Part shown: positions 46,391 to 62,878 of the stretch, one piece after another
How positions within the stretch are numbered: the first letter of the stretch is position 1
Layout: the number at the start of each line of letters is the position of its first letter
Assembly: GCA_964624155.1 (NCBI GenBank)
Contig: CAZUWM010000002.1
Location: forward strand, 5,159 to 69,158
DNA: 64,000 nucleotides
Source: an uncultured Planctomycetales bacterium
GTDB lineage: Bacteria; Omnitrophota; Gorgyraeia; Aquiviventales; Aquiviventaceae
Direction: 5' to 3'
Translations under genes and position numbers: made by a program
The notes under the pieces: model-generated
The model's database searches: none
Told to the model about the DNA's origin: nothing
Seen by the model: the letters and a program-made list of their open reading frames with translations, nothing else

Positions 46391-46500
46391 TCACAGATAC
46401 CACAGATGCACAGCACCACAGATAGCACAGATAAAGCACAGAATCTGTGGAACAGTTATCTGTGTCATCTGTGGAAGGTTCTGTGTCATCTGTGGTGTGT
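46391..46500. repeat. Large palindromic array: CACAGAT x5-6 / ATCTGTG x5, centred on cacagaatctgtg
   Basis: Between LacI start and secretin A stop. Confidence 0.85.
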
Positions 46501-46511: not shown

Positions 46512-48065
46512 TCAGTTCTTCACAGAGGCGAGATGGGCACCGGTGGGATTGACGAGCTGGGCGGTGACGAAAATCAACAAGTTGGAACGCTCCACGGAAT
46601 CATCCTCCTTGCGAAACAGCGACCCGATGATCGGCATCGACCCCAGCACAGGCACTTGGGTCCTGGTCTTCGTCGTCGTGTCCTTCATCAGCCCTCCGAG
46701 CACGACGGTCTGGCCATTGTCGATCACCACGGTGGTTTCCAGGTTGCGGGTGGTAAATCGCGGCAGCGACACCTCTCCCCCAAATGTGTCGTCAGTTTTC
46801 TTTTCGCTCACTTCGGGCTTGAGCGCCAGGGTGATCGTCTTCAGATCTTGCCCCACGCTGGGTGTCACCCGCAACAAAATACCCAGGTCTTTGGTTTGAA
46901 AGTCTTGCGGCACTTGGATGAAGCGCGTCTCCCGTACCCCCGCTGAGGAGACGTCGTTGAAATCCCCATCTTTATTGAGATCCTCCCGTTTGACTGACGC
47001 TTCATAGCGGCTGGCGTAGACAAATTCCGTGACCACCTTGATGGCGGCGGTCTGGTTGTTGAGCGTCGTCACCCGAGGCGCCGACAGGGTCTTGGTTTTC
47101 TTGTTCTGGGTCAGCGCATGCAGGACCGCGGAATATTGCGTGCCGGTCAGGATGCCCTGGAAGGTGAGGTTCAGCGCGTTACCCGAGGTCTGATTGGCGA
47201 AATCGCTGAAGGCGATTTTCGTCCCGCGCTTGAGGGTTGGTCCCGTCGTGGCGAGCTGAACCTCGGGACCTTTTTTCACCACCAGATTCTCGGTGAGCTG
47301 CTCATCAAACCCCCACTCAAAGGTGTCCGTCAAGGTCAACTCAATAAAGCGGGCTTCGATCATCACTTGAATCGGCTCAACGTCCAGTTGGACCAGCAAC
47401 CGCTCGACTTGCTCGAGGTAGTACGGCACGTGCGCGACGATGAGCGCACCGCTGCGCTCATCGAGCAGGAAGGTGCTGTCTCCCACCTGGGGAATCACCT
47501 CAGTCAGGATATCCTTGACCGTTTTGAGTTCTTTGACGCCGGTGCCTTGCAACGCCACGCTCTCGCGCACATCCGCCAGCGGCTCAAAGGCGGCTTTCAA
47601 CGCCAACCCCTGCTTCAGATAGTACACCCGTGTATCGAGGGCTTCGGCTTCCATCTCATCGCGGCTGGCAATCCAGATGGTTTCACCATCCAACCGGTAC
47701 AGCAGTCCTTGGCCTTTGAGCAGGTAATCCAGCACGCGAGACAGGGGCATCTCCACGAGATGCATCGTCACCGGCTTGCCCGTCGTCTTGGCTTGCTCGG
47801 AGAGCACGATGTTCACCCCGCCTCCTTCGGACAGGAAGTCCATCGCCGCACTGAAATCGACTTCCTGGAAATCGGCGGTGACGGGTTGGTTCAACCGATC
47901 TCGAATGGTTTGTACGCTGACCGTGGTGGCCACCGGCGTAGAAGGCTCCGTCACCCCCGCCCACGTCGGGCTGGCAATGACCAAGAGGCACAGACCCGCC
48001 ACACCGGGATGTTGCGTGACTCTCCACTTCGCCAGGGTTGAACCCATTAACTTTTGGGGAGTCAT
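46512..48065 (-). CDS. Secretin (GspD/PilQ family), paralog A
   Basis: Signal peptide, N0 domain, secretin C-domain (RVTTLNNQTAAIKVV..., VPVLGSMPIIGSLFRKEDDSVERSNLLIFVTAQLV). Confidence 0.8.
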   Translation of the reverse strand: MTPQKLMGSTLAKWRVTQHPGVAGLCLLVIASPTWAGVTEPSTPVATTVSVQTIRDRLNQPVTADFQEVDFSAAMDFLSEGGGVNIVLSEQAKTTGKPVTMHLVEMPLSRVLDYLLKGQGLLYRLDGETIWIASRDEMEAEALDTRVYYLKQGLALKAAFEPLADVRESVALQGTGVKELKTVKDILTEVIPQVGDSTFLLDERSGALIVAHVPYYLEQVERLLVQLDVEPIQVMIEARFIELTLTDTFEWGFDEQLTENLVVKKGPEVQLATTGPTLKRGTKIAFSDFANQTSGNALNLTFQGILTGTQYSAVLHALTQNKKTKTLSAPRVTTLNNQTAAIKVVTEFVYASRYEASVKREDLNKDGDFNDVSSAGVRETRFIQVPQDFQTKDLGILLRVTPSVGQDLKTITLALKPEVSEKKTDDTFGGEVSLPRFTTRNLETTVVIDNGQTVVLGGLMKDTTTKTRTQVPVLGSMPIIGSLFRKEDDSVERSNLLIFVTAQLVNPTGAHLASVKN

Positions 48066-50398
48066 GTGACTGGGCCGCGGGAAGCGATAATCCGCGCGGT
48101 GATGAAGATGACGAGATTCTTGCGAGTGACCGTCTCGTCCTTCTGACGGAAGAGCGGCCCCACGAGCGGCAGGTCGCCGAAGAACGGCACTTTGGTCACG
48201 GTGGTGGACCGCGTGTCTTTCATGAGTCCGCCCAGCACCACGGTTTCGCCGTCATGAATCACCACACTGGTCGTCAGTTGGCTGGAGGTGAATTCCGGCA
48301 CCGTCACCCCGCCCCCCAGATCGCGGAACTGACTGAACGAGCTGACCTCCGGCACGAGGACCAAGGTCATCGTCTTCAGGTCCTTGCCGACGCTTGGGGT
48401 CACGTTGAGGAGGATGCCGACGTCCCGTTTTTGAATGTCTTGCGGGACGTTCACAAACTCGGTTTCCCCGGCATCGTCAAAATCCCCGTCGCCGTTGGTA
48501 TCAAATTGGACGAGCGAGACCTCGTAACGGGTGGGATAGCGGAATTCATCGACCACTTTGATCGTCGCGGGTTTATTGTTCAAGGTGGTCACGCGGGGGG
48601 CGGAGAGGGTCTTGCTCTTCTTGCTTTCCTCCAAGACATGGAGGACGGCCTCAAACTTCGCCGCGGTCATGACGCCTTGCAGGGTCAAATTCACTCCTTC
48701 GTCCTCGCGGCTCAGGGCGGGAAACTTAAAACCGCCTCCTGTGGCAATCTGATTGCCGCCCGTACGGCCGGGCGGGGTCGCCTGGTTGGGACGCGTGTCG
48801 GTCCGCTTGGTCAGATCATACGCATCCGTCAGCACCATTTCCAATCCGAGGTGCTCCAGATCCGTCATCGTGAGTTCGATCACTCGCGCTTCAATCAGGA
48901 CTTGAATCGGGGTGACGTCCAGTTGACTCAGCAGGTGTTCGGTCAATTGCAAGTTCTCCCCCGTGTTCGTGATAATCAAGGCGCCGATGCGTTCATCAAC
49001 GACCAATTTGCTGTCGGGCGGCTGGGGGACGGTTTGCGTAATCAGGTCTTTGATCGACTCCATTTGTATGAGTGGGCTCTGCTCGACCGCCGACACCTCC
49101 AAGGCTGAGGGACTGAAACCGCTGCGCAGGAAGAAGACACGGGTTGCCATCGGCTGATTCTCGAATTCTTCCTTGGTGGCCAGCAGGACCGCGTCCTGCT
49201 CGATGCGATAGGAAAGCGTGAGGCTTTTGGCCAAGTATTTGATCGCGTGCTCCAACGGCAGATCGTTAACCTTAATGGAAACAAGCTGCGTCTTGAGGTC
49301 CAACTGCGGGGAGGGGATGATGCTGATCCCCGCGCCATCCGCGATAAAGTCCACCACGTCCCCCAGGGCGACCTCGCTGAAATCCAAGCTGATGGGCTGT
49401 TGGAGCTTGGCGCTGAATTGCTCGCTCGCTCCATAGGGACTCGGCGGGGAGACGAGCCCGACGGTCTTGGCCTCCGGCACGACTTGCGCCTTGAGGACGT
49501 CGTGGATCATCTGGCGCTCATCCATCACAACGCGGCGCTCCAGCCGATCCTGCTCCTCCGTCAGCTTGGCGTCCTGCACCTGTTCCATCAACCGCTGGGC
49601 CGCTCGGTCCGAGGGGTCCTGGACCAAAATTTTCGTCAGCAGTTTCGTCGCCGTGTCATACTGGCGCTCGGCCAAGGCCACTTTGGCGTATTTCATGGCG
49701 GTCTCGAGCTCGATCCGTTTCTCCACCAACAACTGCTCCAACTGGGACACCACCGCTCCCTCGCCAGGTGCCGCCGTGGGAGCTCTGGCGGTGGTCCGCG
49801 CCTGATCTTCATAGCGCTTCAATTCCACCCGCGTGACGAGACGATCCGCCGCTTTGACGAGCGGATGGGAGGGATCGACGAGAGCCATCTGTTGCAGCAC
49901 GGAGATGGCGTCGGTGTACCGTCCTTGTTGATACAAGGCCAGCCCTCGGTGATACAACTCTTTGAGCTGACGCTCCCGGGCGAGTTGGATTTGACGTTGG
50001 GCTTCCCGACTTTTCTCGACGCGCTCTCGGACTTTCTCGCGCACCAGCTTCTCAGCCACTTCGGCGGCCTCGCGGCGAACCCCAGGCGCGCTCAGGACTC
50101 GAGCAGGACGGGTTTTGGAGACGTGTTCGGCGGATTGTTTTTCGCGAATCAGCGCTTCGGCGAGGGCGTTGGCTTGGGCTTGGAGGCGCGCGCAACGCTC
50201 GGCCTCTTCCCCGGTGAGGCCGGCACACGGCGAGCTTGTGGTGAGCGAAGTCGAACCAGAGGATGATTCGGCAGGAGGGACTGGCGTGAAGGACCACGTC
50301 GCGAGCGCACTCGCAAGGAGGACGCTCACCCACGACCGCAAGCGACGCCTCGACATGGTTTCATCGTAACCAACTGTCCCCGTGCTGTCAAGCGTCAT
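48062..50398 (-). CDS. Secretin (GspD/PilQ family), paralog B with ~400-aa coiled-coil/TPR-like N-terminal extension
   Basis: Same secretin core (RVTTLNNKPATIKVV..., VPFFGDLPLVGPLFRQKDETVTRKNLVIFITARII); ATGA-type overlap with paralog A. Confidence 0.8.
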   Translation of the reverse strand: MTLDSTGTVGYDETMSRRRLRSWVSVLLASALATWSFTPVPPAESSSGSTSLTTSSPCAGLTGEEAERCARLQAQANALAEALIREKQSAEHVSKTRPARVLSAPGVRREAAEVAEKLVREKVRERVEKSREAQRQIQLARERQLKELYHRGLALYQQGRYTDAISVLQQMALVDPSHPLVKAADRLVTRVELKRYEDQARTTARAPTAAPGEGAVVSQLEQLLVEKRIELETAMKYAKVALAERQYDTATKLLTKILVQDPSDRAAQRLMEQVQDAKLTEEQDRLERRVVMDERQMIHDVLKAQVVPEAKTVGLVSPPSPYGASEQFSAKLQQPISLDFSEVALGDVVDFIADGAGISIIPSPQLDLKTQLVSIKVNDLPLEHAIKYLAKSLTLSYRIEQDAVLLATKEEFENQPMATRVFFLRSGFSPSALEVSAVEQSPLIQMESIKDLITQTVPQPPDSKLVVDERIGALIITNTGENLQLTEHLLSQLDVTPIQVLIEARVIELTMTDLEHLGLEMVLTDAYDLTKRTDTRPNQATPPGRTGGNQIATGGGFKFPALSREDEGVNLTLQGVMTAAKFEAVLHVLEESKKSKTLSAPRVTTLNNKPATIKVVDEFRYPTRYEVSLVQFDTNGDGDFDDAGETEFVNVPQDIQKRDVGILLNVTPSVGKDLKTMTLVLVPEVSSFSQFRDLGGGVTVPEFTSSQLTTSVVIHDGETVVLGGLMKDTRSTTVTKVPFFGDLPLVGPLFRQKDETVTRKNLVIFITARIIASRGPVT

Positions 50399-50466
50399 TC
50401 ACAGATGACACCGATACACATGCCACAGATGACACAGATTAATTCTCTCTTCTGCGCTCTGTGGTG
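50396..50466. repeat. CACAGAT x3 with partial CTCTGTG partner
   Basis: secretin B start / PilP-like end junction. Confidence 0.7.
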
Positions 50467-50963
50467 GCCTTCGAGGCGAGCGGCAGGCGCACTTCTTCCT
50501 TCGTATCCAGCTTCAACAACACCACCTGATCTTCCGTAATCTCCACCACTTGAAAACCAACGACTTCCTGGCCGGCCTGCACGAAAAAGGTCTTTTTCTG
50601 TTGGCGATCCTCCAGAATCCCGCGCTGTTTGGTGCCCATCACCACGCGTCCTTTGAACACGAATTGCGGAGGGAGGGGTTGCTGCGGCGTCGCGCCCGCC
50701 TCCTCGGCCGGTTTCGGAACGTGGCGGCGCTGGCGACTGAATGGATTGGCTTGCAGCGCCTTCTGCAAGGTTTCCGGGTCGGTTTCCGAGGGCGGCTTCA
50801 AAGGTTCAGGTGTCGGAAACAATTCTTGGACATGTTCCCATCGTTCAGCCACCACGGAGGGAGGTTGACGGGCCCGCATCGTCTGCTGCCAATTCCACGC
50901 GACAAGCGAGAGCGCCACGAACACGACCGCCGTGACCATCGCTTCGAGCGGCGAACCTTTCAT
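50439..50963 (-). CDS. PilP/GspC-like secretin-interacting protein
   Basis: N-terminal TM, Pro-rich linker, C-terminal beta domain resembling PilP of locus 1 (...HEDQVVL...). Confidence 0.5.
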   Translation of the reverse strand: MKGSPLEAMVTAVVFVALSLVAWNWQQTMRARQPPSVVAERWEHVQELFPTPEPLKPPSETDPETLQKALQANPFSRQRRHVPKPAEEAGATPQQPLPPQFVFKGRVVMGTKQRGILEDRQQKKTFFVQAGQEVVGFQVVEITEDQVVLLKLDTKEEVRLPLASKATTERRREN

Positions 50964-51029
50964 CGTGATAAGAAATTGTGACGTATCGCCTTCTTTGCCT
51001 TCTCCATCTTCTTGCCCTCTGAAGCCTTC

Positions 51030-51839
51030 TTACGTTTTCTTCGCTTTACCGGAATCTTTCTTCTTGTCGAGCTCATCTTCAGTGGTGGGGAGTTTCGGAG
51101 CGGTGACGAAATAGCGGGCCACGACCAGCTCCACCGCCAAAGGCTTCGCCTCTTCCCCGCTCTCCGTCGAGGTGGTCGTCACCCGCAGACCCTGCAGGTC
51201 GACCAGCGGGTCGGCCCGATCGAAGGCGTTGAGCACTTTGGTCAAGACGTCAATCGGACAGCTCAGGCGAATGCGAACCGGCAGTTGCGTCAGAAACACG
51301 TCCTGCTCTTCAGCGAGCACCACCGGCTGAGGATCCTCCACCTTGAACGACTCAACGGACGCAACCCCCGGCACGGACATGACCACCTCCGCCGCCTGCT
51401 CGATCAACCCGACCTGCACGAGAAAGCGCGGAACGGCTTCCGGAGGGGGAAGATCTTTAGGAAATCCCAATTGCGTCGGGGCCGTCATGTTTCGAGCGGT
51501 CGCCAGCCGTTCGATGGTGCGCTGGACGGCATGGCTACGTTCTTGGAAGAGCAGTTGGGTGTCGGTCTGTTGGTCACCCAGCTGGAGGGGCGGAGCCATC
51601 CGCGCCAACGCCGTGTCGTACTGCGCCTCCAGCGCCTTCGTCCGCCGTTTGAGGTAGTCAACCACCTGGGGATTCGGTGGGAGTTGATCGCTGACATGGA
51701 GGTTCTTCAACGCCGCTTTCTTCGCCTTGATCTCTTGATCGAGCGCCTGGAGTCGAACCCGCCACACCGCAAAGGCTCCCACCGTCGCCGCGACCATGAG
51801 CAGCAACACGAGTTGTCCTAGATTGGTCTGTCGGGCCAT
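51030..51839 (-). CDS. GspM/PilO-like inner-membrane assembly protein
   Basis: TM + coiled coil + ferredoxin-like C-domain topology; follows GspL-like gene. Confidence 0.5.
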   Translation of the reverse strand: MARQTNLGQLVLLLMVAATVGAFAVWRVRLQALDQEIKAKKAALKNLHVSDQLPPNPQVVDYLKRRTKALEAQYDTALARMAPPLQLGDQQTDTQLLFQERSHAVQRTIERLATARNMTAPTQLGFPKDLPPPEAVPRFLVQVGLIEQAAEVVMSVPGVASVESFKVEDPQPVVLAEEQDVFLTQLPVRIRLSCPIDVLTKVLNAFDRADPLVDLQGLRVTTTSTESGEEAKPLAVELVVARYFVTAPKLPTTEDELDKKKDSGKAKKT

Positions 51840-53384
51840 TTATTTCTTCTTCGATTTTTTGGAGGATTTCGCCGGCGCGGATTTCCCCTTGGCCGAATCC
51901 TCCGCGACACTCGGCGTCGTCGAAGAGGCGTCCAAGAGCCGTTGGACTTGAATGGCAAACGCCACGACCTCCGTCTTCGTCGTTGGATCGGTCATGACGT
52001 TCGTCGCCTGGGGCTTGACCGTCATCCATTCAGGTTCGGCTTTCAAGCGATCGATGAACTGCGTCACACCCTGAAACGATTGCGCGAACCCCTCGAGCGT
52101 GCCGCTGATGTGCGGAAGGCTTTTGGTCAATTCGAGCATGGTCAGCCAGAGACTGTCCGGCAACGTCTCGGTGATCTGGACGAACGAACGGGTCATCCGG
52201 TCGTGGGTGCGCGCGAGAGACTCCAATTGCATGAGTCGATACTCCAGGTGGGCCTGGTGTCTCCGGATCGTCCGGACCTCCGGTCGAAGGAGCTGATACG
52301 AGTGCTCCTCTTTACGATAGGCTTCCACCACGGCCTGGCGAGATCGCAAGGACGTCAAGATCCCCTGGGCGCTCCACCCTGCGGCCATGAGTGCCGCCAC
52401 CAATCCGATGAGCTGGGAACCGCGGCGCAGGCGAGCCACGCGACGGGCACGCAGAATCTGGTCCACCAGATTCAACGAAAGCCGCGCGGTCCCCGCGGCC
52501 TGTAAGGCCAGCCCGCAGGTGGCCACGAAATCCTCCGCCCCGACGTCCGCCGTGGGGCGAGCAATCGTCTCTGTGGAAAGCGAGTGGACGGGACACCCGA
52601 TCGCGCGTTGGAGCGACGCTCCAAACGAGGATCGGCTCTCCGTGCTGCCGACGAGCCAGATGGATGGCGAAGCAGACAACGTCACTGCGGAGGTCTCCAG
52701 ATGTTTCTGCAATCCTTCCCACGAGCTCTTCAGCCACGTCACCGTCTGATCCTGATCCGCTGTCGACGGAAGGAGGCTGGGAAAGACATAGAGGCCGTTC
52801 GAGGCAATGATGATCCACTCCAACACCCGCCCGTCGAGCCGCACGACCAGACCCGCTCCAACAGCCGTCGGGGCGGACTGCAGCCAGGCATTCGCCACGG
52901 CCACCGCATTCACCTGGACGCCGCTCACCGCAACGCCCGCTCGCTGGCAAGCCGTAAGTCGCTCCTGGAGCACGGAGTGTTTGACAGCCGCCACCACCGC
53001 GGCCCCACCCACGCTACCGGATGGAGACGCCGAGGATTTTGATTGTCCATTGAGCGAGAGCCATTGGTAGTGCCAGACCGTCTGCGCCGCGTCATAGGGC
53101 AGGTGTTGCTGGAGTTCGAATCCCACCGCCAAATTCGCCCGAGCGCGATGGACAACGAGCGGCTGCACCGTCGTGACAATGGCGGAGGTCGTCGGCAACC
53201 CCAGCACCACCGGGGATTTGATGGGTAGCGTCCTGCGGACGTATTGGATGGCGCGCAGCAAATCAGGCCCTGAGGTGCCTCCCCAGGGCGCATGGGTGGC
53301 GGCGAGAAGTCGTGGAGGTTTCGTGCGAGGATCAAGGAGGACGGCGCGGACCGCCGCCGTCCCCAACTCCAGACCAACACTCAT
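51840..53384 (-). CDS. GspL-like protein (PilM-type actin-like domain fused to PilN-like TM/periplasmic domain)
   Basis: Internal Met MSVGLELGTAAVRAVLL (actin-like phosphate-1), central TM, PilN-like C-terminus, Lys-rich tail. Confidence 0.6.
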   Translation of the reverse strand: MSVGLELGTAAVRAVLLDPRTKPPRLLAATHAPWGGTSGPDLLRAIQYVRRTLPIKSPVVLGLPTTSAIVTTVQPLVVHRARANLAVGFELQQHLPYDAAQTVWHYQWLSLNGQSKSSASPSGSVGGAAVVAAVKHSVLQERLTACQRAGVAVSGVQVNAVAVANAWLQSAPTAVGAGLVVRLDGRVLEWIIIASNGLYVFPSLLPSTADQDQTVTWLKSSWEGLQKHLETSAVTLSASPSIWLVGSTESRSSFGASLQRAIGCPVHSLSTETIARPTADVGAEDFVATCGLALQAAGTARLSLNLVDQILRARRVARLRRGSQLIGLVAALMAAGWSAQGILTSLRSRQAVVEAYRKEEHSYQLLRPEVRTIRRHQAHLEYRLMQLESLARTHDRMTRSFVQITETLPDSLWLTMLELTKSLPHISGTLEGFAQSFQGVTQFIDRLKAEPEWMTVKPQATNVMTDPTTKTEVVAFAIQVQRLLDASSTTPSVAEDSAKGKSAPAKSSKKSKKK

Positions 53385-53390
53385 GAGGAT

Positions 53391-53415
53391 GATTTCACTG
53401 TGTAATCTGTGTTCC
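53391..53415. repeat. ATCTGTG-type short cluster
   Basis: cactgtgtaatctgtgttcc; GspL-like start / Ig-like end. Confidence 0.6.
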
Positions 53416-54975
53416 TTATTCGATCTTCCACAACTTGATCGGCGGTCCGTAGGGCACGACGGTGCCAGGCGGCTGAATCCCGACAATCCAGGTACGCTCG
53501 GCCGGCGTGGGATCCTCTTCTTCGTCCGGCTGGATGCCGTCCTGGCCGTTGGACTCTTTCGCGGCCTTCACACGGAAGTAGTGGTTGCCGTAGGAGAGTC
53601 CCTCTTTCTTCGCCACCGTCTCAGAGTTCCAGGCCGACCAGCCGTCGTGGTCAAAGGCGTACGAGAACACACACCCGCCTTCCGGACAGGTAAAGCTGAA
53701 CGGCGCGCTCGTCGATGGGGTGAAGCCGGCCGGCCCGCTGAGGATGATGGTATCCGGTGCTAGCAAGTGCAGCTCAATGTCCGCCGCCACCGGCTCGGAG
53801 ATATTGCCGACTTTATCGATGAATTTGACGTAGACTTTCTGGGTTCCGTTGACTGAGTTCAACTTCCACAGCTCTCGCACCGGGTTAAAGGATTCTTGGA
53901 CGAAGCCCGTCACCGCATCGTTGCTGATGAGCATCCCGGTGACCCCGGAGATCGCATCCGAGCTGGAGAGGTTCAGCGTCACATAGACACTCGTGGTCAT
54001 CGCGGCCCCCGCGTTGATCAGCACCGAGCCGGTTGGTGGGGTCACATCCGTGGTGAAGCTCCACACCAAGGCGGTTTGCTTGTTGCCGACGCGGTCAGAG
54101 GCTTCGACCTGAATGGCGTTCGCGCCCTCTTTCACCAAGCCGGTACTGGTCGCGGTCACGACTCCGGTCGTCTCATCGACGCTGACCGACGACTGGAGGC
54201 CGTTGATCAACAACTTGATCTGCGAAGCCCCCACCCCGCTGTGGGGATCCGTCACGTTGACGGAAATGCCGGGTTTGAGGGTGTTCAACAGACTCCCCGC
54301 CGCCGGGGTGTAGGTCCCCAGTGCCGGCGCGGTCGTATCAAGCCACAATGCAAAGGACAAGGGTGTCCCGGCATTGCCGGCCGAATCCACGGCTTTGACC
54401 GAAAAGAGGTGCTGGCCGTCGGCCAGCCGTTTCAGGGGGTCTTGCGCCACGTCCCAGGAGGTGCCTTTCGTGTCAATGATCGTGTCGGGATCTCCATTCA
54501 GCGCATAGCTGTAGCCCTCCACCAACTCAGGCGCCTGCGCTTGCCAGATGAAGATCGGATCGGCATCGCGCTGCCAGGTCTTCTGGCTGATCTCGGTTCC
54601 GAGGGGCGCGGCCTTCGCATATAAGAGCGTCAAGGCCAGATTGCCTTTGACGACGGAGATGGCCGGACCCAGGGCCGCGCCAACGAATCCTGTGAAGACT
54701 TGAACCGTCTTACTGGACAACTTGTCTGCGCTGAAGGCCGCACCCATCGTGGTGGTTTGTCGGTGTCCCGATGAGGAACTGGTGACGACCCCGCCCAATT
54801 GCGTGGTCTCGCCGATCTCCAGCGTTTTGGTCTCGCTCTTGGCGCGCGCCGCCTCCACCAAACCAGTCGACAGTCCATAGTCCATAGTCCATAGCAAAAG
54901 AGCAACGGCGAGAGAGCGCCCAACGAACAACGGCGTGACGGTGGACGGTGGACGGGAGACGGTGGACGGTATCAT
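53416..54975 (-). CDS. Secreted protein with tandem bacterial Ig-like (Big) domains
   Basis: Signal peptide; repeated Ig-like segments (DTTAPALGTYTPAAG..., TDVTPPTGSV...); no pilin N-terminus; signal peptide partly encoded by CCATAGT repeats. Confidence 0.55.
   Translation of the reverse strand: MIPSTVSRPPSTVTPLFVGRSLAVALLLWTMDYGLSTGLVEAARAKSETKTLEIGETTQLGGVVTSSSSGHRQTTTMGAAFSADKLSSKTVQVFTGFVGAALGPAISVVKGNLALTLLYAKAAPLGTEISQKTWQRDADPIFIWQAQAPELVEGYSYALNGDPDTIIDTKGTSWDVAQDPLKRLADGQHLFSVKAVDSAGNAGTPLSFALWLDTTAPALGTYTPAAGSLLNTLKPGISVNVTDPHSGVGASQIKLLINGLQSSVSVDETTGVVTATSTGLVKEGANAIQVEASDRVGNKQTALVWSFTTDVTPPTGSVLINAGAAMTTSVYVTLNLSSSDAISGVTGMLISNDAVTGFVQESFNPVRELWKLNSVNGTQKVYVKFIDKVGNISEPVAADIELHLLAPDTIILSGPAGFTPSTSAPFSFTCPEGGCVFSYAFDHDGWSAWNSETVAKKEGLSYGNHYFRVKAAKESNGQDGIQPDEEEDPTPAERTWIVGIQPPGTVVPYGPPIKLWKIE
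54872..54894. repeat. Tandem CCATAGT x3
   Basis: gtccatagtccatagtccatag; encodes part of the Ig-like protein signal peptide (LWTMDYGL). Confidence 0.8.
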
Positions 54976-57900
54976 CGTTGCAGGACGGCTTGGATCCGTT
55001 TTGAGGCGACAGGCCGATTGCGCTCAAAGGCCTCGCCCATGCTCATCACTTGAAACACTTGTGAGCGGACCGTCAACCAGTTCGCCAACTGCCGAAACCG
55101 TGCCAGCCGATCATCCTCAGTCTCTCCCAACGTCGAGCCGATCAACACATCCCCAATCCCACGGGCTTTGCTGTCTTGATCGCCATAGGGCCGTCCCGCC
55201 ACGATCCGATCGACGATGGCCTCCGTCATCCCCGACAAGCTGAGCAGGACATCGCGTGACGCCGTATTGACGTTGATGCGGCCCACGAGGATGAGCTGGG
55301 GATCACACATCGCATGGAGGAAATGGCACACGTGGCTTTCCGATTCACACCGGATCTCAAGATGCAAGGTCTTCGGATCAGTGACCCCCATGCCCACCGT
55401 CACCTCACCCACAATCAGACGCCCTTGGGCATCGGTGATCCGAGGAGGCGTCCACTCGCCGTCCTCGCTCCATCGCACCGCCATCGTCTCCCCGCTCCAT
55501 CCATACAGACTCAGGCGATACGTCCCGTCGGGGATGTCCGTCCATTCCCAGACGCCAACGGCCTGACCCCCTGCCCCGCTGGTCTCATAGCCCGTCAGCG
55601 TCTCATGCCATCGATCCCCTCCGCCCAGGAGCGTGGCGGCTTGGCTTTCCAGTCGCAAGCCATCAACCGTCAGTTGATCGACAATCACCGCCAGGTCGTG
55701 GCTCTCCACCGGCTTCCACGCGATGCTGCTGGCCAACCCCGCCAACTCTCCCAATGAGCCCAGCGGTCGATTCAAAATGGTGATTTCCGTCGAGGGATCG
55801 TGCCGAATTTGCTCTTCTCCCGCCACCTCTAAGAGGCCTTCGTTATCGTTCGCCTCGCCGGGGGTGTATTGCTTCAGCGATGGATACCAATCCTCATCAA
55901 GCCCATCTTTGTCATCGTCGAGCACCACGGTCGGATCGCCCTTTTCAAGGCTCTGAAACCCCACGGAGGTGGGGAGTGGAATGCGGTACTCAATCTCATC
56001 CACCACCCACCCCTGGCGGTCCTTCAGCGCCAGCCGGGCGGAGGAAGCATCGGGCGGGAGGGTGCTGATGAGCCAATCCATATCGGGACTCAAGTCGCCC
56101 TCTTCTTCAAGGAATTCAAGCTGCACCACATTGGCATCATCCCGCATCTCCCACGCCGCCAGCGCCGTGATGTCGTTCTCCAGGCCGGGCTGCGTATCAT
56201 CCACGTCCACCGCCGCCACCAACACGCCGTGAGCAGGAATCTTGGCCCCCTCCGGCAGCGACACGGTCCGCATGGCCGCGATCCCTTCGATGGTCCAGCG
56301 GCTCACATCGACCTCCTGGTCGCTGAGGTTGATGAGCTCCACATACTCGCCGTCAGGCTCAAGGGACAACGACACCTTCTCAAAATAGTATGTCACCTCG
56401 CCGGCGGTTTTGCCAAGAGAGACGCGAAATTTTGTTTTCTTCGGCTGCTGCTCACCCGCCTGGGGGACTTCCACCACGATCAACGGCTCGTCATGCCGAG
56501 CCCCGTGGAAGGAGACGGTCGAGCTGCTGTTGATTTTTCCCACAGCGCTCCCAGATTGCCCATAGACCCGAAGGTGATACTTCCCCGGAGGGACGTAGTT
56601 GGATTGTCCCGCGGTCGTCGTCCACTCCCATTCAGCCGATCCCACCCCGCTGTTCGTGCAGGTGCTGGAGGCACATGACCAAGCGGAATTGCCTTTCGAA
56701 AAGGTGGCCGCACTCACCGTCAACTCGACCACCGGCGAGACCATCAACTCATTGAATCGCACCGCCTCGATGCCCCGCACGACCGTCCCTCCGCTCGTCG
56801 GCGGTTCGGTGGGCACGAGCTCCACGCCGCGAAACGCACACGAGCTGTCTTCGGCCTCGCGACAGGTCAGTTCCACCGTCATCGTCTCGCTGGTCAGTTT
56901 CAGCGTCCCAAACGTCTCATCGGAATCGAGGGAGGGTTTCGACTCCCCGTTGATCGTGACATCGCCCACTTTCGTTCCGGAAAGGCCCCGCACGATGACC
57001 TGGAAGGTGCCAAGAGGGACGGAGAGCGCCCAGGCAAGCGCAGACTCTGACGGGCTGCTGAGGTAATGACCCTCTGGTTGCGCCTGCCACGTCCAACTGC
57101 CCTGGTCGCCTTGGTTGGCCATCTCGTAGGGCGTGCTGTGCCGCACCACCTTGGAGAGGGCGAGGTCCGTATCGATGTAATCCGCCATATTGGCCGCGAG
57201 CTGCCAGGGATCGGCCCCGCCTTTTTCCAGCAAGGCGTTGAGGATTTCTTCGGCGGTGGCGGTATTGACGTTCAACCGCGGTTGGCCGGTGATGCTGAGA
57301 TTCGTATCCCAACTATACACCGTGGCGACGGTTGACAGCTTGGTGAAGGTCGCCTCATCCAACTCGCTGAGCGACAGCACGTCTTCCAGGGTTTCGAAGC
57401 GTCGATCATCCCCTCGCAAGGCCAGCGGCTGATACTCGTCCGGCTCATCCACCGTCCCATCACCGTCATCATCAATGTTGCCACGGCCTGGCTGACCATC
57501 CTCGCCGAAGCGGTAGCTCTCGACCGAGGTCGCGAGGGAGCCGGGCACGCCGATCTTCGAAAACAGCGAGGTGAGGCTCATGCCATCGACCCCATGAGCC
57601 GCTGGATCGGCCAGGGCGACGTTGAGATTCACCTTGCCCGCTTCATCCCTGATCAAGACGCCATAGCGTCCCCCCACCTCGCCGTGGCTGTTCGCCACCA
57701 GCCACCACCGGGCGTCAACGGTGTCATCCTCATCCACATCGACATCGGAGCCGGTCATCGCATCGACCCACGCCTCCGTCAGGTCGTCATAGCGCGATCC
57801 GAGCTGATCCTCATCCAACACGACCCACCCATGGGCGACACCGGCTTCCGCGATATACCGGGCTTGCGTTGAGGCGACGAATTGTTTGGCGGCCTGGGTT

Positions 57901-58085
57901 TCGAGAAACATCGAGAACACGAACGAGACCCCCATGATCGCCACGACGGTGAGCACGCTGACGACGATGAGCAGCGCAATCCCCCGCTCTCCAATGCGGA
58001 ATGGGGAATGGGGAATGGGGAATCTAAGCCTTCCATTCCAAATTCCAAATTCCGAATTCCGAATTCGATCAGCTGGTGGGGACAT
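54972..58085 (-). CDS. Giant GspK/PilX-like minor pseudopilin (~1040 aa)
   Basis: N-terminus ...ERG|IALLIVVSVLTVVAI (GspK-type, no Glu5); two ComEA/HhH-like LNVNTAT / INVNTAS motifs typical of T2SSK; ~700 aa of extra beta-rich sequence. Confidence 0.6.
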   Translation of the reverse strand: MSPPADRIRNSEFGIWNGRLRFPIPHSPFRIGERGIALLIVVSVLTVVAIMGVSFVFSMFLETQAAKQFVASTQARYIAEAGVAHGWVVLDEDQLGSRYDDLTEAWVDAMTGSDVDVDEDDTVDARWWLVANSHGEVGGRYGVLIRDEAGKVNLNVALADPAAHGVDGMSLTSLFSKIGVPGSLATSVESYRFGEDGQPGRGNIDDDGDGTVDEPDEYQPLALRGDDRRFETLEDVLSLSELDEATFTKLSTVATVYSWDTNLSITGQPRLNVNTATAEEILNALLEKGGADPWQLAANMADYIDTDLALSKVVRHSTPYEMANQGDQGSWTWQAQPEGHYLSSPSESALAWALSVPLGTFQVIVRGLSGTKVGDVTINGESKPSLDSDETFGTLKLTSETMTVELTCREAEDSSCAFRGVELVPTEPPTSGGTVVRGIEAVRFNELMVSPVVELTVSAATFSKGNSAWSCASSTCTNSGVGSAEWEWTTTAGQSNYVPPGKYHLRVYGQSGSAVGKINSSSTVSFHGARHDEPLIVVEVPQAGEQQPKKTKFRVSLGKTAGEVTYYFEKVSLSLEPDGEYVELINLSDQEVDVSRWTIEGIAAMRTVSLPEGAKIPAHGVLVAAVDVDDTQPGLENDITALAAWEMRDDANVVQLEFLEEEGDLSPDMDWLISTLPPDASSARLALKDRQGWVVDEIEYRIPLPTSVGFQSLEKGDPTVVLDDDKDGLDEDWYPSLKQYTPGEANDNEGLLEVAGEEQIRHDPSTEITILNRPLGSLGELAGLASSIAWKPVESHDLAVIVDQLTVDGLRLESQAATLLGGGDRWHETLTGYETSGAGGQAVGVWEWTDIPDGTYRLSLYGWSGETMAVRWSEDGEWTPPRITDAQGRLIVGEVTVGMGVTDPKTLHLEIRCESESHVCHFLHAMCDPQLILVGRINVNTASRDVLLSLSGMTEAIVDRIVAGRPYGDQDSKARGIGDVLIGSTLGETEDDRLARFRQLANWLTVRSQVFQVMSMGEAFERNRPVASKRIQAVLQR
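57996..58067. repeat. GGAATGG x4 followed by (A/G)AATTCC x4 (inverted arms)
   Basis: 5' end of giant GspK-like gene / 3' end of GspJ-like gene; translated as NSEFGIWNG...FPIPHSPF. Confidence 0.8.
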
Positions 58086-58674
58086 ACACGACGGTCTCAA
58101 ACTGTTCCGGTTTCTTCGCGCCGATCGTCACGGTGATCCGAATCGCTTTGGGGACTCGGGCTTCCTGCTCGCCATCCTCCCGCCCATCCCATGCCGTCAG
58201 CCACTGCGTGCCATCGAAATACGACAGCTCCAGTCCAACGACGTCGGTCCCGCACACCTCATCCGTGCCGGTGGCTTCGTAATCGCCGTCCGCAGGCTCG
58301 TCATCATGGCACATGAACTCGTGCTCGCTGTTGAGCCAATACCCCCGCTCCACAAGGCCGGAGCGCCCGGCCAGGACCCCGACGAAAAACACCTCGTCTT
58401 GCGTGCTGTCCTCTTTGAATCGGGTGGCCTCGGCGTCGTTGCCCACAAACGGATACCGCTCCTGGGTCAGACACGAACCGAGTTCCCTCGCGAAGAGATC
58501 AAACAGGAGACGAGCTTGTTGATAGCGCTCCGTCCGCAACTGCCCGCTGCGCCACGTCTGCGTGATCCCGCGGAACATCAGCATCGTCGAGCCCGTGATG
58601 GTGATGAGAATCGCCATCGCGATCATCAGTTCCACCAACGTCAGCCCCTGGGGTCGGGGCTCTACATTTGACAT
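58069..58674 (-). CDS. GspJ/PilW-like minor pseudopilin
   Basis: MSNVEPRPQG|LTLVELMIAMAIL prepilin motif; ~200 aa. Confidence 0.6.
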   Translation of the reverse strand: MSNVEPRPQGLTLVELMIAMAILITITGSTMLMFRGITQTWRSGQLRTERYQQARLLFDLFARELGSCLTQERYPFVGNDAEATRFKEDSTQDEVFFVGVLAGRSGLVERGYWLNSEHEFMCHDDEPADGDYEATGTDEVCGTDVVGLELSYFDGTQWLTAWDGREDGEQEARVPKAIRITVTIGAKKPEQFETVVYVPTS

Positions 58675-58741
58675 TGCAGGGCGCGAGGAGTCTCGGTCCG
58701 ACCCCATGGTCTGTTCTTGACGATTTTTTACCCTGAACCCG

Positions 58742-59185
58742 TTAACTTTTAGGCTTGCGGAGGTAGGTCACCAGATCAAGGGTTCGACCGCGGCCCTCCT
58801 GCGCCCACCCTACCGAGACGGTCACCCGCTTGAGACTGGTCGGATCCACCACGTCCTCGACCTCCGGTTGATCGATCGTCAGGACGATGGTGTAGTCTTC
58901 TTCAGTCGTCGTGGAACTCCCCACGGCGAGGTCGTCCCAGGACGTGAGTTTGGTTGAGGCCATGGTGCGTTCGGCCAACAGAGTGGCTCGACTGACCTGC
59001 TCCGCGCGACGAGAAGCCCGCAGGCCCATCGGGAAGACCCGCATGGATCCCACGAGTCCGACGGAAAGGATCCCAATGGCGATGACGACTTCCACTAACG
59101 AGAAGGCGGAAGGCGGAAGGCGGAAGGCGGAAGTAGTTTTCCACTTCCCACTTCCCACTTCCCACTTCCCACTTCGACAAGTCAT
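58742..59185 (-). CDS. GspI/PilV-like minor pseudopilin
   Basis: ...PPSA|FSLVEVVIAIGILSVGL prepilin-like N-terminus; 27-aa leader encoded by GGAAGGC/CACTTCC heptamer repeats; ATGA overlap with gspF-like gene supports the start. Confidence 0.55.
   Translation of the reverse strand: MTCRSGKWEVGSGKWKTTSAFRLPPSAFSLVEVVIAIGILSVGLVGSMRVFPMGLRASRRAEQVSRATLLAERTMASTKLTSWDDLAVGSSTTTEEDYTIVLTIDQPEVEDVVDPTSLKRVTVSVGWAQEGRGRTLDLVTYLRKPKS
59089..59176. repeat. GGCGGAA/GGAAGGC x4 followed by CACTTCC x5 (inverted arms)
   Basis: Encodes leader peptide of GspI-like pseudopilin. Confidence 0.85.
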
Positions 59186-60249
59186 CCGAGGATCTTGGTG
59201 AGTGAGAGCAACGGCAGGAACATGGCAATCACAATGAAGCCCACAATCCCACCCACGCCGACAATCAACAAAGGCTCAAGCAGCTGCGTCAACCCCCCCA
59301 GCATCACCTCGACCTCTTCCTCGTAGTTATCCGCCAACTGGACGAGCATCCGATCGAGCTGGCCGGTCTCCTCGCCGAGGGCCACCATCCGGGAGACGAG
59401 CGGCGGAAACGCCCCGGAGACTTCGATGGGACGGGCCAGGGATTCACCGGCGCGCAGACTCCGCTCCACGTCCTGCAAGGCATCATCCAGGACCGCGTTG
59501 GAGACGGTCATGCGGACCGTTTCCAAGGCGTTCAGGATCGGCACCCCGCTGGAGAGCAACGTTCCAAACGTCCGGGCGAAGCGCGCGATGAGGAGCTTGT
59601 GAATGAGGGTCCCGAAGAGCGGCAGTCCCAACAGTAATCGGTCGACCTGCCGTTTTCCGCCGGGGGTCTTCATCAGCGCTTGGAGCAGCGCCACGAATCC
59701 TGCGGCGGCGATCGCCACCAACCACCACCATTGACGCACGATATTGCACAGGATGATCAAAATCCGCGTGGGCAGGGGCAAGGCGGAGCCCAGCTCGGTG
59801 AACATCCCCATGAAGGTGGGGACCACGAAGGCCATCAGGATGATCAAGATGCTCACGGCGGCGAACATCACAAAGGCCGGATACATCAAGGCGCCGCGCA
59901 CGCGATCGCGCAGCCGTTGTTGTTTTTCCATCACCTCGGCGAGCCGCTTGAGGATTTCTTCAAGGAGCCCGCCGACTTCTCCGGCCCGCACCATATTGAT
60001 GTAAAACGGAGGGAAACACCGTGGATGCCGCGAGAACGCTTCGGAGAGCTTGACGCCCGCTTCCACGTCACTGGCGACCAGGGTAAAGACTTGGCGCAAG
60101 GACCCCGGTTCCAGTTGGTCGCTGACGGTACGGAGGGATCGCAGCAGCGGCATGCCGGCTTTCACGAGGGTCGCCAACTGCCGGGTGCACACGACCAGTT
60201 GAGCGCGCGAGGCGCCGCCAAACCGGAATCGCCCCCGCGAAGCCATCAC
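59182..60249 (-). CDS. GspF/PilC-family inner-membrane platform protein
   Basis: T2SF repeats, 3 TM; 355 aa. Confidence 0.8.
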   Translation of the reverse strand: MMASRGRFRFGGASRAQLVVCTRQLATLVKAGMPLLRSLRTVSDQLEPGSLRQVFTLVASDVEAGVKLSEAFSRHPRCFPPFYINMVRAGEVGGLLEEILKRLAEVMEKQQRLRDRVRGALMYPAFVMFAAVSILIILMAFVVPTFMGMFTELGSALPLPTRILIILCNIVRQWWWLVAIAAAGFVALLQALMKTPGGKRQVDRLLLGLPLFGTLIHKLLIARFARTFGTLLSSGVPILNALETVRMTVSNAVLDDALQDVERSLRAGESLARPIEVSGAFPPLVSRMVALGEETGQLDRMLVQLADNYEEEVEVMLGGLTQLLEPLLIVGVGGIVGFIVIAMFLPLLSLTKILG

Positions 60250-61400: not shown

Positions 61401-62636
61401 CTAGGCTTGGATGAACACCTCACGAATCACCCAGCAGGCGGCTCCTAACGCGACCGCCTGATCTCCTAATTTCGCCGGCAACACATCCACGAGACTCGCG
61501 TGCTCTTCGTAGGCGTACCGTTTCACGGCCCGCCACACCGGCTCCAGCAGGAATGAATCAGCCTGTTCAATCCCTCCCCCGATCACGACGACCTCAGGAT
61601 TCAGGAGGTTAACGATGGTGGCGATGCGAACGCCCAATTGCAAGGCGGAATGCTCGATGAGCTCTTTCGCGAGTTGATCACCCGCGTGGGCGGCTTTGAT
61701 GACCACGTCCATCGTCAACTCATCGAGGTGGCCATTGACCAATTCCTTCATCGTGGAGGCGTTCCCTTCCCCGATGAGTTTCTTCGCCTGGTTGGCCAAG
61801 CCGAGATCCCAGACATTGGAGACGAGGAATCCGGGGCCTTTGATCCACGTGATGTAATCATCGTTGTTGGGCACCGAGATGCCGACTTCCCCGGCGCTGC
61901 CGCATGAGCCCCAATAGACATGGCCGTTCAAGATCAGACTAGCCCCGACATCCGAGTAGAGGTAGACCATGTTCTCCACGCGACGATCCAGGCCGAGTCG
62001 ATACTCTCCGTAACCCGCGAAGCTCGCGTCGTTGCCGATGAAGACGGGCATCTTGAACTCGCTTTCCCACCGACTTTGGAGGGCCAAGTAACTCGTTCGG
62101 CTGCCGCGATGCGAGGAGGTATCGCGGACGGTTCCTGCCCGCTCATCCAAGATCCCACCGACCCCAATGGCGATCCCCTGGATTTTTTTCGGATCCACGG
62201 GACTGGTGGTGAGCACGTCACGAATGAGCTCGACCGCTTGCGCCAGCGCCTCATCCATCGTCGTGATGGCGCGGGATCGAGTCCGTTGATGCACGATGCT
62301 CCCGCGCAGATCCGTGATGAGGCCTCGCATCGTGACATGGGGGACGTTCATCGGTCCGACATCCACCCCGATCGCAAAGCCGGATTTCGCGTGGAGCTCG
62401 ACCAGCACGGGTTTCCGACCGCCGGTGGACACATCAAATCCTCGCTCCACCACCAGCCCGTGCTTGATGAAATCCGCCACGTAGTTGGAGACGGTCACGA
62501 TGTTGAAACCGGTGCCTTGCGACAACTCGGTCCGCGTCATCGGTCCCCGTTGGCGGATGAGCTCAAGCAAGCTCAAGCTCTTTTGTTCCCGTTCCGTGAG
62601 CCGATGATCTTCGAGCAGGGTCCGTCGTCGAATCAT
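61401..62636 (-). CDS. ROK-family transcriptional regulator (NagC/Mlc-like; N-terminal wHTH + sugar-kinase fold)
   Basis: HTH LLELIRQRGPMTRTELSQGTGFNIVTVSNYV; ROK glycine-rich regions; zinc motif partly degenerate (WGSCGSAGE). Confidence 0.75.
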   Translation of the reverse strand: MIRRRTLLEDHRLTEREQKSLSLLELIRQRGPMTRTELSQGTGFNIVTVSNYVADFIKHGLVVERGFDVSTGGRKPVLVELHAKSGFAIGVDVGPMNVPHVTMRGLITDLRGSIVHQRTRSRAITTMDEALAQAVELIRDVLTTSPVDPKKIQGIAIGVGGILDERAGTVRDTSSHRGSRTSYLALQSRWESEFKMPVFIGNDASFAGYGEYRLGLDRRVENMVYLYSDVGASLILNGHVYWGSCGSAGEVGISVPNNDDYITWIKGPGFLVSNVWDLGLANQAKKLIGEGNASTMKELVNGHLDELTMDVVIKAAHAGDQLAKELIEHSALQLGVRIATIVNLLNPEVVVIGGGIEQADSFLLEPVWRAVKRYAYEEHASLVDVLPAKLGDQAVALGAACWVIREVFIQA

Positions 62637-62783: not shown

Positions 62784-62878
62784 TCACAGATGGCACAGAG
62801 ACTCCACAGATGGCACAGATACATTCCCTCTGTGGTTCTCTGTGTTCTCTGTGGTGTGTATCTGTGCTATCTGTGGTT
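62784..62878. repeat. Palindromic array: CACAGAT x4 / TCTGTG x5
   Basis: Between glycoside hydrolase stop and ROK regulator start. Confidence 0.85.

Follow-up and report, generated by a model that had tools for sequence, protein, structure and literature searches.

The window, the whole 64,000-nt stretch of Omnitrophota DNA that was analysed, encodes a giant GspK-like minor pseudopilin that is best read, with a probability of about 0.6, as a modular tip pseudopilin capping a T2SS or type IV filament-like fibre and bearing a presumed binding head. At 1037 aa, compared with 327 aa for E. coli GspK and the ~300-350 aa usual for this family, the minus-strand gene product agrees with the original prediction of a GspK-like open reading frame of ~1040 aa, about three times the normal size. 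Its GspK core is interrupted by a large beta-rich insert, and the protein is probably a filament-tip adhesin of Omnitrophota, as judged from the folds of the insert and its gene context. The coordinates of the gene, its modules and its neighbours are collected in Table 1.

Table 1. Giant GspK-like gene, its modules and its operon neighbours (positions are those of the window).
Feature	Residues	Position	Strand	Evidence
Giant GspK-like minor pseudopilin gene	1037 aa + stop	54972..58085	minus	ORF list, translation
Leader peptide, predicted cleavage site Gly34	aa 1-34	57984..58085	minus	DNA read
Ladder hairpin of two 7-nt tandem arrays, translated in frame within leader		57993..58066	minus	TRF
GspK N-terminal core	aa 35-270	57276..57983	minus	GspK profile 1-223 of 307
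First LNVNTAT helix-hairpin-helix (HhH) unit	aa 271-311	57153..57275	minus	sequence; helices 278-288, 293-304
Jelly-roll module A	aa 322-430	56796..57122	minus	domain model pLDDT 94, Foldseek
Jelly-roll module B	aa 461-576	56358..56705	minus	hhalign to A and D
Lamin-tail domain (LTD)	aa 577-705	55971..56357	minus	Pfam LTD, Foldseek
Conserved connector, Asp-rich loop VVLDDDKDGLDEDWYPS	aa 706-821	55623..55970	minus	conservation
Jelly-roll module D	aa 822-932	55290..55622	minus	hhalign to A and B
GspK C-terminal core	aa 933-1037 + stop	54972..55289	minus	INVNTAS HhH, Pfam T2SSK, GspK profile
ROK-family regulator, N-terminal HTH, operon head		61401..62636	minus	
GspF/PilC platform protein	355 aa	59182..60249	minus	T2SSF 225 bits, GspF E=3e-115
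GspI/PilV-like minor pseudopilin	147-aa ORF	58742..59185	minus	N_methyl, pilV/XpsI/gspI matches
GspJ-like minor pseudopilin	212 aa	58069..58707	minus	N_methyl motif, T2SSJ/gspJ matches
Secreted Ig-like (Big_13 / OmpL47-type) protein	519 aa	53416..54975	minus	domain matches
GspL-like PilM-PilN fusion		51840-53486	minus	Pfam/NCBIfam matches, synteny
GspM-like		51030-51839	minus	Pfam/NCBIfam matches, synteny
GspC-like		50439-50963	minus	Pfam/NCBIfam matches, synteny
TPR-secretin		48062-50398	minus	Pfam/NCBIfam matches, synteny
Second secretin		46512-48065	minus	Pfam/NCBIfam matches, synteny
LacI regulator, operon tail		45388-46428		

The longest reading frame (54972..58100) opens with TTG and would yield 1042 aa, while the ATG at 58085 is the likely start; the stop codon occupies 54972-54974. 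The plus-strand translation of the same interval is stop-rich, and an identical 1037-aa protein exists as a called gene in the NCBI data. An annotation or assembly artefact, in which two or more genes were joined by a frameshift or misassembly, would find its sole support in the unusual length and in a repeat hairpin within the leader. Against it stand 90 independent full-length homologs from many samples (980-1111 aa, 32-87% identity), the occurrence of the gene in 41 GTDB species-level genomes (all 41 of them Omnitrophota), invariant residues that run over the whole length and are numerous within the insert, a confident single-chain AlphaFold2 model (pLDDT 88.1, pTM 0.83), and the dependence of the two GspK halves on each other for a complete fold. 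Because of this conservation, neither chance nor the fusion of two genes by a frameshift, which the original prediction had named as its possible undoing, accounts for the reading frame, and the artefact reading is refuted.

The assignment to GspK is carried by concordant profile comparisons. The NCBIfam GspK model matches the protein in two stretches (E=2.9e-23, 82.9 bits), and Pfam T2SSK reaches 30.2 bits over aa 937-966, above its gathering cutoff of 24.2. Excision of aa 271-936 in silico left a single GspK profile match spanning positions 1-283 of 307 (E=3.6e-23), and the C-terminal 105 aa alone aligned with positions 213-285 (E=7.8e-6). In hhalign comparisons, E. coli K-12 GspK was aligned over 210 columns with 88-89% probability, the N-terminal core pairing with its residues 3-225. 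In the AlphaFold2 model, DSSP places a long, hydrophobic helix alpha-1 at aa 35-96 of this core, ahead of the initial beta strands and the start of the alpha-domain with its Asp-rich loops, and the overall order of alpha-1, strands, helical region and two final pilin strands (1010-1021 and 1024-1036) fits that of GspK. Together with the adjoining GspI and GspJ genes, these matches bear out the proposed GspK-type tip pseudopilin and dispose of the concern that GspK homology might be missing altogether. The NCBI equivalog cutoff of 130 bits is not reached by the full protein (82.9 bits) or after excision of the insert (82.6-87 bits). The solved GspK structures 3CI0 and 5VTM were absent from the top 50 whole-model Foldseek matches, and PDB sequence searches with the family profile and with the insert-excised core returned only ComEA-like HhH matches and neither of these structures.

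Both NVNTA motifs noted in the original prediction are present (LNVNTAT spanning aa 271-277, INVNTAS aa 937-943); since they belong to the GspK fold in its usual form, they provide no evidence of ComEA-like DNA binding. The first HhH unit is an extra copy relative to canonical GspK, and once it is removed along with the insert, the GspK alignment runs through in a single stretch. Membership among ComEA-type DNA receptors was considered and rejected, with HHH_3 scoring 25.1 bits against a threshold of 27 and TIGR00426 18.9 against 53, in a protein that is acidic.

The N-terminus has the features of a class III (prepilin) signal, with a predicted leader that ends in Gly, approximately 20 hydrophobic residues and no Glu at +5. 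The motif GERG is followed by IALLIVVSVLTVVAI (likewise rendered as GERG followed by IALLIVVSVLTVVAIMGV), and the residue at +5 after Gly in the sequence IALLIVVSVL is Ile, in keeping with the pseudopilin segment lacking Glu5 that had been predicted at an ERG cleavage motif. The ATG lies within a 17-nt overlap with the 3' end of the GspJ-like gene that precedes it. Although the leader start MSPPxxR is kept in homologs, leader length ranges from 4 to 60 aa, and in the AlphaFold2 model the leader has a pLDDT below 50. Within it, a 69-nt repeat composed of GGAATTY x4.6 and CCCCATT x4.4 (TRF) folds as RNA into a ladder of 5-bp rungs (-38.7 kcal/mol, z = -1.65). This hairpin is missing in the closest relative (P0001, 87% identical), whose leader is 8 aa long. 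A leader repeat hairpin is also found in the GspI/PilV-like gene (-43.2 kcal/mol, z = -3.5).

Approximately 665 residues, almost all of them beta strand in the model, separate the two NVNTA motifs, which upholds the beta-rich and inserted character of the segment and corrects its size from the ~700 residues first proposed. In the model, the insert folds into three jelly-rolls and an Ig-like, lamin-tail-type domain, answering the fold question that the original prediction had posed for AlphaFold. Modules A, B and D are paralogous according to hhalign (A-B 97.6%, A-D 94.8%, B-D 92.8%). The whole-model Foldseek search against the PDB gave mostly loose alignments across several domains (reelin, Cry toxins, CUB; rmsd >17 Å), and module A was modelled singly because that search was useful only for single-domain matches to 1ifr and CBM6. 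The best PDB matches of module A are 7ay3 and 1w0n (CBM36), 2cdp (CBM6) and 2vzp (CBM35), at TM 0.55-0.62, probability 1.0, E about 3e-3 to 2e-2 and 11-17% identity; the module thus shares the beta-jelly-roll of CBM6/CBM35/CBM36-type modules at the level of fold only. CUB, APC10/DOC and Cry toxin domain III appear in the same list of matches, and in these three the same jelly roll mediates protein binding. No Pfam CBM family matched the modules when the whole protein and its segments were scanned, and module B gave a weak match to FlgD_ig. Two pairs of cysteines are conserved, Cys471/Cys476 in module B (both kept in 45 of 51 sequences) and Cys913/Cys920 in module D (49 of 51), which on sequence grounds would be compatible with an extracytoplasmic location.

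The lamin-tail domain narrowly misses the gathering score of Pfam LTD PF00932 (34.3 bits), with 26.6 bits in the full protein and up to 32.6 in the isolated segment; most homologs carry a precomputed PF00932 match, and one (P0134) scores 42.7 bits. In the whole-model Foldseek search, the domain matched lamin A/C (1ifr) with a probability of 1.00 and a TMt of 0.59. The idea that module B is nested within the LTD was explored by joining aa 431-462 to 575-712, which moved the LTD score from 31.5 to 32.6 bits; the alignment stopped short of the strand VRFNELMVSP (aa 442-451), which resembles the first LTD strand. Bacterial lamin-tail domains are without an established function (PMC6085458). The connector that follows has no Pfam family match and is conserved, with a mean majority fraction of 0.71 and invariant E714, K715, D717, P718 and W733.

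Comparison with the GspK lengths of relatives, as the original prediction had suggested, uncovered inserts of widely differing size at one site: among 147 relatives tested, 99 carry 190-1670 aa at the same place, about GspK profile position 213-223. In cluster look-ups for the other size classes of insert, which gave very few names, P0126 alone was placed in Omnitrophota. The giant gene itself belongs, across the 41 Omnitrophota species loci, to an operon of fixed order, namely ROK, GspF, GspI, GspJ, GspK, Ig-like protein, GspL/M/C-like proteins and two secretins, the last five genes together spanning 46512..53486. GspK is immediately preceded by the GspI- and GspJ-like genes, with GspJ adjacent to it in relatives too, and the Ig-like gene is always immediately downstream, even among relatives of 30% identity; here the start codon of the Ig-like gene and the GspK stop share the sequence ATGA, and the 519-aa protein is a candidate partner or cargo. 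The ROK regulator recurs in 17 related loci (62-81% identity), a LacI regulator also closes the operon in two others (L001 and L045), and the conserved synteny extends to GH2-like, GH116 and GH94 glycoside hydrolases nearby. Among the operon genes there is no ATPase and no major pseudopilin, GspE, GspG, GspH and GspO all being absent; a pilus cluster at 19178-32592 contains two PilB/GspE paralogs and two major-pilin-like genes. A 1376-aa paralog and the family member P0027 do not lie on one contig.

These features are consistent with a mechanism in which a prepilin peptidase would cleave the giant GspK, which may then nucleate the filament tip with GspI and GspJ, as judged from the tip complexes GspI-J-K and XcpV-W-X, whose structures are solved. 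An assembly ATPase and a major pseudopilin would probably be borrowed from the pilus cluster. As the alpha-domain would face away from the filament, the insert would form the most distal part of the fibre; the model and the position of the insert inside the HhH (alpha-domain) region support the tip location originally proposed. The head is presumed to bind an external ligand, probably a glycan to judge from its predicted folds and genomic context, either on a polysaccharide or on the surface of a host or prey cell. When the filament extends through the secretin, such binding could tether the cell, which is very small, or else capture substrate or cargo, and expression is probably sugar-controlled via the flanking ROK and LacI regulators. 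Since the pseudopili of classical T2SS are believed not to leave the periplasm, surface display of the giant GspK is an assumption of this scheme.

If that assumption were wrong, the protein could instead be the head of a periplasmic piston in a classical T2SS, which recognises folded exoproteins and pushes them through the secretin, or plugs the channel, without serving as a surface adhesin. The gene set (GspF, I, J and K, an L-like PilM-PilN fusion, M, C and secretins) is indeed T2SS-like, and candidate cargoes are at hand in the Ig-like secreted protein, translationally coupled to GspK in every relative, and in the glycoside hydrolases encoded nearby; jelly-rolls of this type also make protein-protein contacts, and the canonical T2SS tip complex touches both cargo and secretin (PMC6211770). 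However, canonical systems recognise their cargo with a GspK of only ~320 aa, the head, with its four conserved domains and its disulfides, is similar to the modules that modular pilins display, and Omnitrophota have been proposed to rely on pili for contact with hosts. A periplasmic role appears rather unlikely. A receptor for extracellular DNA at the tip, serving uptake or foraging through the HhH and lamin-tail elements in the manner of Thermus ComZ, is very improbable. HHH_3 and ComEA-type matches exist, including a PDB profile match to the ComEA-related 2duy (E=5e-5), but T2SSK and HHH_3 match the same residues 936-966, which belong to the ordinary GspK fold. Lamin-tail domains do occur in nucleases such as ExeM, where deletion lowers activity in vitro, yet the domain of ExeM is dispensable for extracellular DNA degradation in vivo (PMC6085458). 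ComZ itself, as described in PMC8179133, sets the precedent of a DNA-binding domain inserted into a tip pilin; the giant GspK, by comparison, is strongly acidic (159 D+E vs 80 K+R overall, 28 acidic vs 8 basic residues in the lamin-tail segment), and competence genes were not seen among the genes examined.

A more far-reaching proposal, which we regard as doubtful in its entirety, combines a surface-exposed glycan-binding adhesin at the tip, by which ultra-small Omnitrophota cells would latch onto polysaccharide particles or onto the cells of a host or prey, with two further ideas: that evolution has used the HhH loop of GspK as a general site of display, fitting it in many lineages with inserts of 190-1670 aa, and that changes in 7-nt repeat copy number within leaders would frameshift GspK and neighbouring pilus genes, switching them on and off.

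The preferred reading, a modular tip pseudopilin with a binding head, would have particular weight for the biology of this phylum. Omnitrophota are widespread, uncultured and mostly ultra-small bacteria thought to be attached to or preying on other cells, and we know of no molecule established as mediating that contact. A phylum-wide, highly conserved tip subunit with a 70-kDa binding-type head is a concrete candidate. A role of Omnitrophota pili in attachment to hosts has been proposed (PMC10066038); that 2023 survey covers their pili and secretion genes, as does a 2026 complete-genome preprint, and GspK is mentioned in neither. Our literature search found no paper combining GspK with a lamin tail domain and none on the Verru_Chthon cassette. 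The recurrence of inserts in 99 of 147 relatives shows that the GspK alpha-domain can act as a grafting site, extending the idea of the modular pilin from pili to T2SS-type pseudopilins.

Among known systems, the tip minor pseudopilin GspK/XcpX (PDB 3CI0 and 5VTM, NCBIfam NF037980, Pfam PF03934) shares with the giant GspK the prepilin N-terminus lacking Glu5, the N- and C-terminal core including the HhH alpha-domain, the GspI-GspJ-GspK gene order, and Asp-rich loops where GspK binds calcium. In contrast, the giant protein is three times longer, carries an additional HhH unit besides three inserted jelly rolls and a lamin-tail domain, falls below the equivalog cutoff and is not matched directly by sequence to any of the solved structures, and its operon differs from the T2SS of GspK in having two secretins and an additional Ig-like gene. 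PMC8179133 describes GspK as a pilin whose beta-sheet is interrupted by an alpha-domain, and treats as established the modular pilins that present adhesive or lectin modules at filament tips, such as S. sanguinis PilB (vWA) and PilC (lectin), ETEC CofB and Thermus ComZ. Measured against that account, the giant GspK would likewise be a pilin carrier presenting a grafted module of ligand-binding type at the filament tip, with a GspK core and four separately folding extra domains that, as in ComZ, are inserted within the pilin fold and not appended to its C-terminus. It differs in that the carrier is GspK, the graft lies inside the alpha-domain (an insert within an insert) and four domains are involved; its module types (LTD plus a CBM6/35/36-like triplet) are not among the modular pilin architectures listed in the text consulted.

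Verru_Chthon cassette protein A (TIGR02600, ~1300 aa), which goes with cassette proteins B, C and D, is similarly very large, has a GspK/PilX-like N-terminus and is encoded beside small pseudopilin-like proteins; the GspI- and GspJ-like proteins of the window match cassette proteins B and C (E about 2e-7), and more distant giant relatives match the N- and C-terminal ends of protein A. Membership of TIGR02600 was rejected both for the giant GspK, which scores 17.8 bits against a cutoff of 332 over residues 35-84 alone and differs in its interior, and for the relatives of ~1300-1400 aa, which reach at most 38 bits. With the PilY1/PilC tip adhesins of type IVa pili, the giant GspK would share the proposed role of a large ligand-binding protein at a minor-pilin tip; unlike PilY1, which is a non-pilin with a beta-propeller, it carries the putative adhesive mass within the pilin subunit itself.

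The giant GspK is encoded by a single minus-strand ORF spanning 54972..58100, which yields a protein of 1037 aa from the ATG at 58085; the plus-strand frame of 54972-58085 is full of stops. The feature originally predicted therefore exists, though on the minus strand. An identical 1037-aa protein is present as a called gene in the NCBI data, on a 73.5-kb contig, and databases already label the gene GspK. Its N-terminus reads …FRIGERG followed by IALLIVVSVLTVVAIMGV, with Ile, not Glu, as the fifth residue after the Gly. Two NVNTA motifs, LNVNTAT (aa 271-277) and INVNTAS (aa 937-943), are separated by ~665 residues, modelled almost entirely as beta strand. The protein is strongly acidic (D+E 159 versus K+R 80).

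Sequence comparison identifies the giant GspK as a homolog of GspK whose core is interrupted by an insert, which bears out the tip-pseudopilin assignment of the original prediction. It matches the NCBIfam GspK model in two stretches (E=2.9e-23), with aa 33-281 corresponding to positions 1-223 of the 307 in the profile, and Pfam T2SSK is matched at aa 937-966 above the gathering score. When aa 271-936 were excised in silico, the halves rejoined: the 341 residues left gave a single alignment over profile positions 1-283 (E=3.6e-23), and the C-terminal 105 aa by themselves matched positions 213-285 (E=7.8e-6). A family profile aligned to E. coli K-12 GspK (327 aa) with 88-89% probability over 210 columns. 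However, the giant GspK is a divergent relative and not a canonical GspK, since its scores of 83-87 bits do not reach the NCBI equivalog cutoff of 130, and solved GspK structures were neither matched by sequence search nor present among the top 50 whole-model Foldseek matches.

A database search retrieved 90 full-length relatives (980-1111 aa, 32-87% identity), several of which carry the NCBI name GspK in 'Candidatus Omnitrophica' MAGs, and an alignment of 51 relatives revealed invariant residues all through the insert. Scanning of GTDB species representatives identified 41 loci with the giant GspK, from both high-GC and low-GC lineages, all belonging to Omnitrophota or to MAGs labelled Planctomycetales by their submitters that contain the same locus. 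An artefactual origin is ruled out by these relatives, invariant residues and species loci.

The AlphaFold2 model, built with the 51-sequence alignment, has a mean pLDDT of 88.1 and a pTM of 0.83. Within the insert, segments A (322-430), B (461-576) and D (822-932) are paralogs (93-98% probability in profile-profile comparison). Module A modelled alone reaches a pLDDT of 94, and its best PDB matches in Foldseek are the carbohydrate-binding modules CBM36, CBM6 and CBM35 (TM 0.55-0.62, probability 1.0, yet E only ~3e-3 and identity 11-17%), with CUB, APC10 and Cry-toxin domain III ranking lower; no Pfam CBM match to the insert modules was found. Residues 577-705 are a probable lamin-tail domain (LTD), which scores 26.6-32.6 bits in the giant GspK, under the Pfam gathering score of 34.3 that most homologs pass; lamin A/C (1ifr) is among the Foldseek matches of the model. 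Modules B and D bear conserved Cys pairs, which fits an extracytoplasmic location.

The giant GspK belongs to a wider family: an exhaustive profile search gave 156 clusters (50% identity) at E<=1e-30 and 1510 at E<=1e-10. Among 147 new representatives (P0094-P0240) from the best 150 matches, 99 contain both the N- and C-terminal GspK cores, with 190 to 1670 residues between them. Insert lengths cluster at about 300-440, 500-730 and 910-1000 aa, with others scattered above these, and the largest GspK-like protein surveyed has 1808 aa. Many of these inserts, though not all, contain a lamin-tail domain; the A-B-LTD-D arrangement is the defining feature of the subfamily of the giant GspK.

The operon retains its gene order in relatives down to ~35% identity. 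The start of the giant GspK gene overlaps the end of the GspJ-like gene by 17 nt and its stop forms an ATGA overlap with the start of the Ig-like gene, which suggests coupled translation across both junctions. The secreted Ig-like protein has 519 aa and contains Big_13 and OmpL47-type beta-barrel domains. Its gene invariably comes next after the giant GspK gene, down to relatives of 30% identity, and its product is a candidate partner at the tip or a candidate cargo. Neither an ATPase nor a major pseudopilin is found among the operon genes. The operon GspF has only 355 aa and is matched by its model from position 56, and therefore lacks the usual first ~55 residues; GspF is likewise short (337-367 aa) in three relatives' loci (L001, L002 and L045). 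Tandem secretin genes lie at the operon end (46512-50398). Their products have 778 aa (TPR region at the N-terminus) and 517 aa, and both genes are kept in L001, L004, L017, L022, L030 and L045. Two secretins in one T2SS-like operon are unusual and might be related to passage of a bulky tip.

Coordinates of the operon, associated features and regions of the giant GspK
Feature	Position	Strand or basis
GH2-like glycoside hydrolase gene	62867-63997	
ROK regulator	61401-62636	minus
Coiled-coil protein	60246-61400	minus
GspF	59182-60249	minus
GspI-like	58742-59185	minus
GspJ-like	58069-58707	minus
Giant GspK	54972-58085	minus
Secreted Big_13/OmpL47-type Ig-like protein	53416-54975	minus
PilM-PilN fusion (GspL-like)	51840-53486	minus
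GspM-like	51030-51839	minus
GspC-like	50439-50963	minus
TPR-secretin	48062-50398	minus
Second secretin	46512-48065	minus
LacI regulator	45388-46428	minus
Type IVa pilus-like cluster	19178-32592	
GGDEF protein gene	32663-34105	
Ladder hairpins	57993-58066, 59102-59175, 54872-54970, 23941-24029, 4907-4997 (also 6033-6065)	
9-nt unit arrays	21089-21166, 38812-38851, 46388-46494, 50400-50439, 62785-62875	
Long alpha-1 helix	aa 35-96	AlphaFold2 model
Few strands, then helical region with Asp-rich loops	aa about 97-270	AlphaFold2 model
First helix-hairpin-helix (HhH) unit	aa 271-311	AlphaFold2 model
Insert	aa 312-932	AlphaFold2 model
Second HhH unit	aa 933-1003	AlphaFold2 model
Two terminal strands	aa 1010-1036	AlphaFold2 model

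A complete type IVa pilus-like cluster is also present in the window, adjoined by a GGDEF protein gene. It encodes PilT, PilC, PilM/N/O/P, a secretin, two PilB/GspE paralogs that both carry c-di-GMP-binding MshEN domains, two major-pilin-like proteins and two minor pilins, but no GspK/PilX-type subunit. Because each cluster lacks components that the other encodes, the two may share parts, and the pilus cluster could supply the ATPase and major pilin for the GspK operon.

Two types of short-unit repeats recur in the window. In each ladder hairpin, a 7-nt unit is repeated in two arrays (3-10 copies) that pair as 5-bp rungs with 2-nt bulges between them; the hairpin at 59090-59190 folds at -43.2 kcal/mol (z = -3.5). 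Four fall within the leader or signal-peptide coding parts of pilus-cluster genes (GspK, GspI-like, the Ig-like protein and a minor pilin), where translation reads through them in frame, and one is clearly intergenic; relatives have other repeats or none at these sites. They may represent REP-like elements tolerated in cleaved leaders, or could act as phase-variation switches, as 7 nt is not divisible by 3. The second repeat type is built from a 9-nt unit, TCTGTGTCA or, in complement, CACAGATGA; its arrays lie in short intergenic spacers, some of them separating operon genes of the two pilus clusters.

GspK caps a trimeric tip and binds calcium (PMC6211770), and PMC8179133 describes it as a pilin with an alpha-domain set into its beta-sheet. 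The solved GspI-J-K and XcpV-W-X complexes suggest by analogy that the giant GspK would cap a trimeric filament tip, and its insert would lie at the outermost end because it sits in the alpha-domain that is itself inserted in the beta-sheet. ROK- and LacI-family regulators flank the operon, and glycoside hydrolase genes adjoin it from outside (GH2-like in the window, GH116 with a sugar-binding protein in L001, GH94 in L045), which suggests sugar-responsive control. Since the insert folds are binding folds and sugar-related regulators and hydrolases lie nearby, the best reading is that the insert would be a glycan-binding head, for which adhesion or capture is a plausible role. A less likely alternative is that the head serves as a periplasmic cargo dock in a classical T2SS. 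A DNA-receptor function is disfavoured by the acidic character of the protein and because the HhH motifs are themselves components of the GspK fold; no role has been assigned to the lamin-tail domains found in nucleases (PMC6085458).

The searchable literature yielded no account of how the insert is built, of its conservation across the phylum or of grafting into the HhH loop of GspK, and GspK is mentioned neither in PMC10066038 nor in a 2026 Omnitrophota complete-genome preprint. The larger GspK relatives are distantly related to Verru_Chthon cassette protein A (TIGR02600), another very large pseudopilin-like protein, but are not members of that family. A putative glycan-binding head agrees with the established idea of modular pilins (PMC8179133), and its proposed adhesive role agrees with the pili proposed for host contact in Omnitrophota (PMC10066038).
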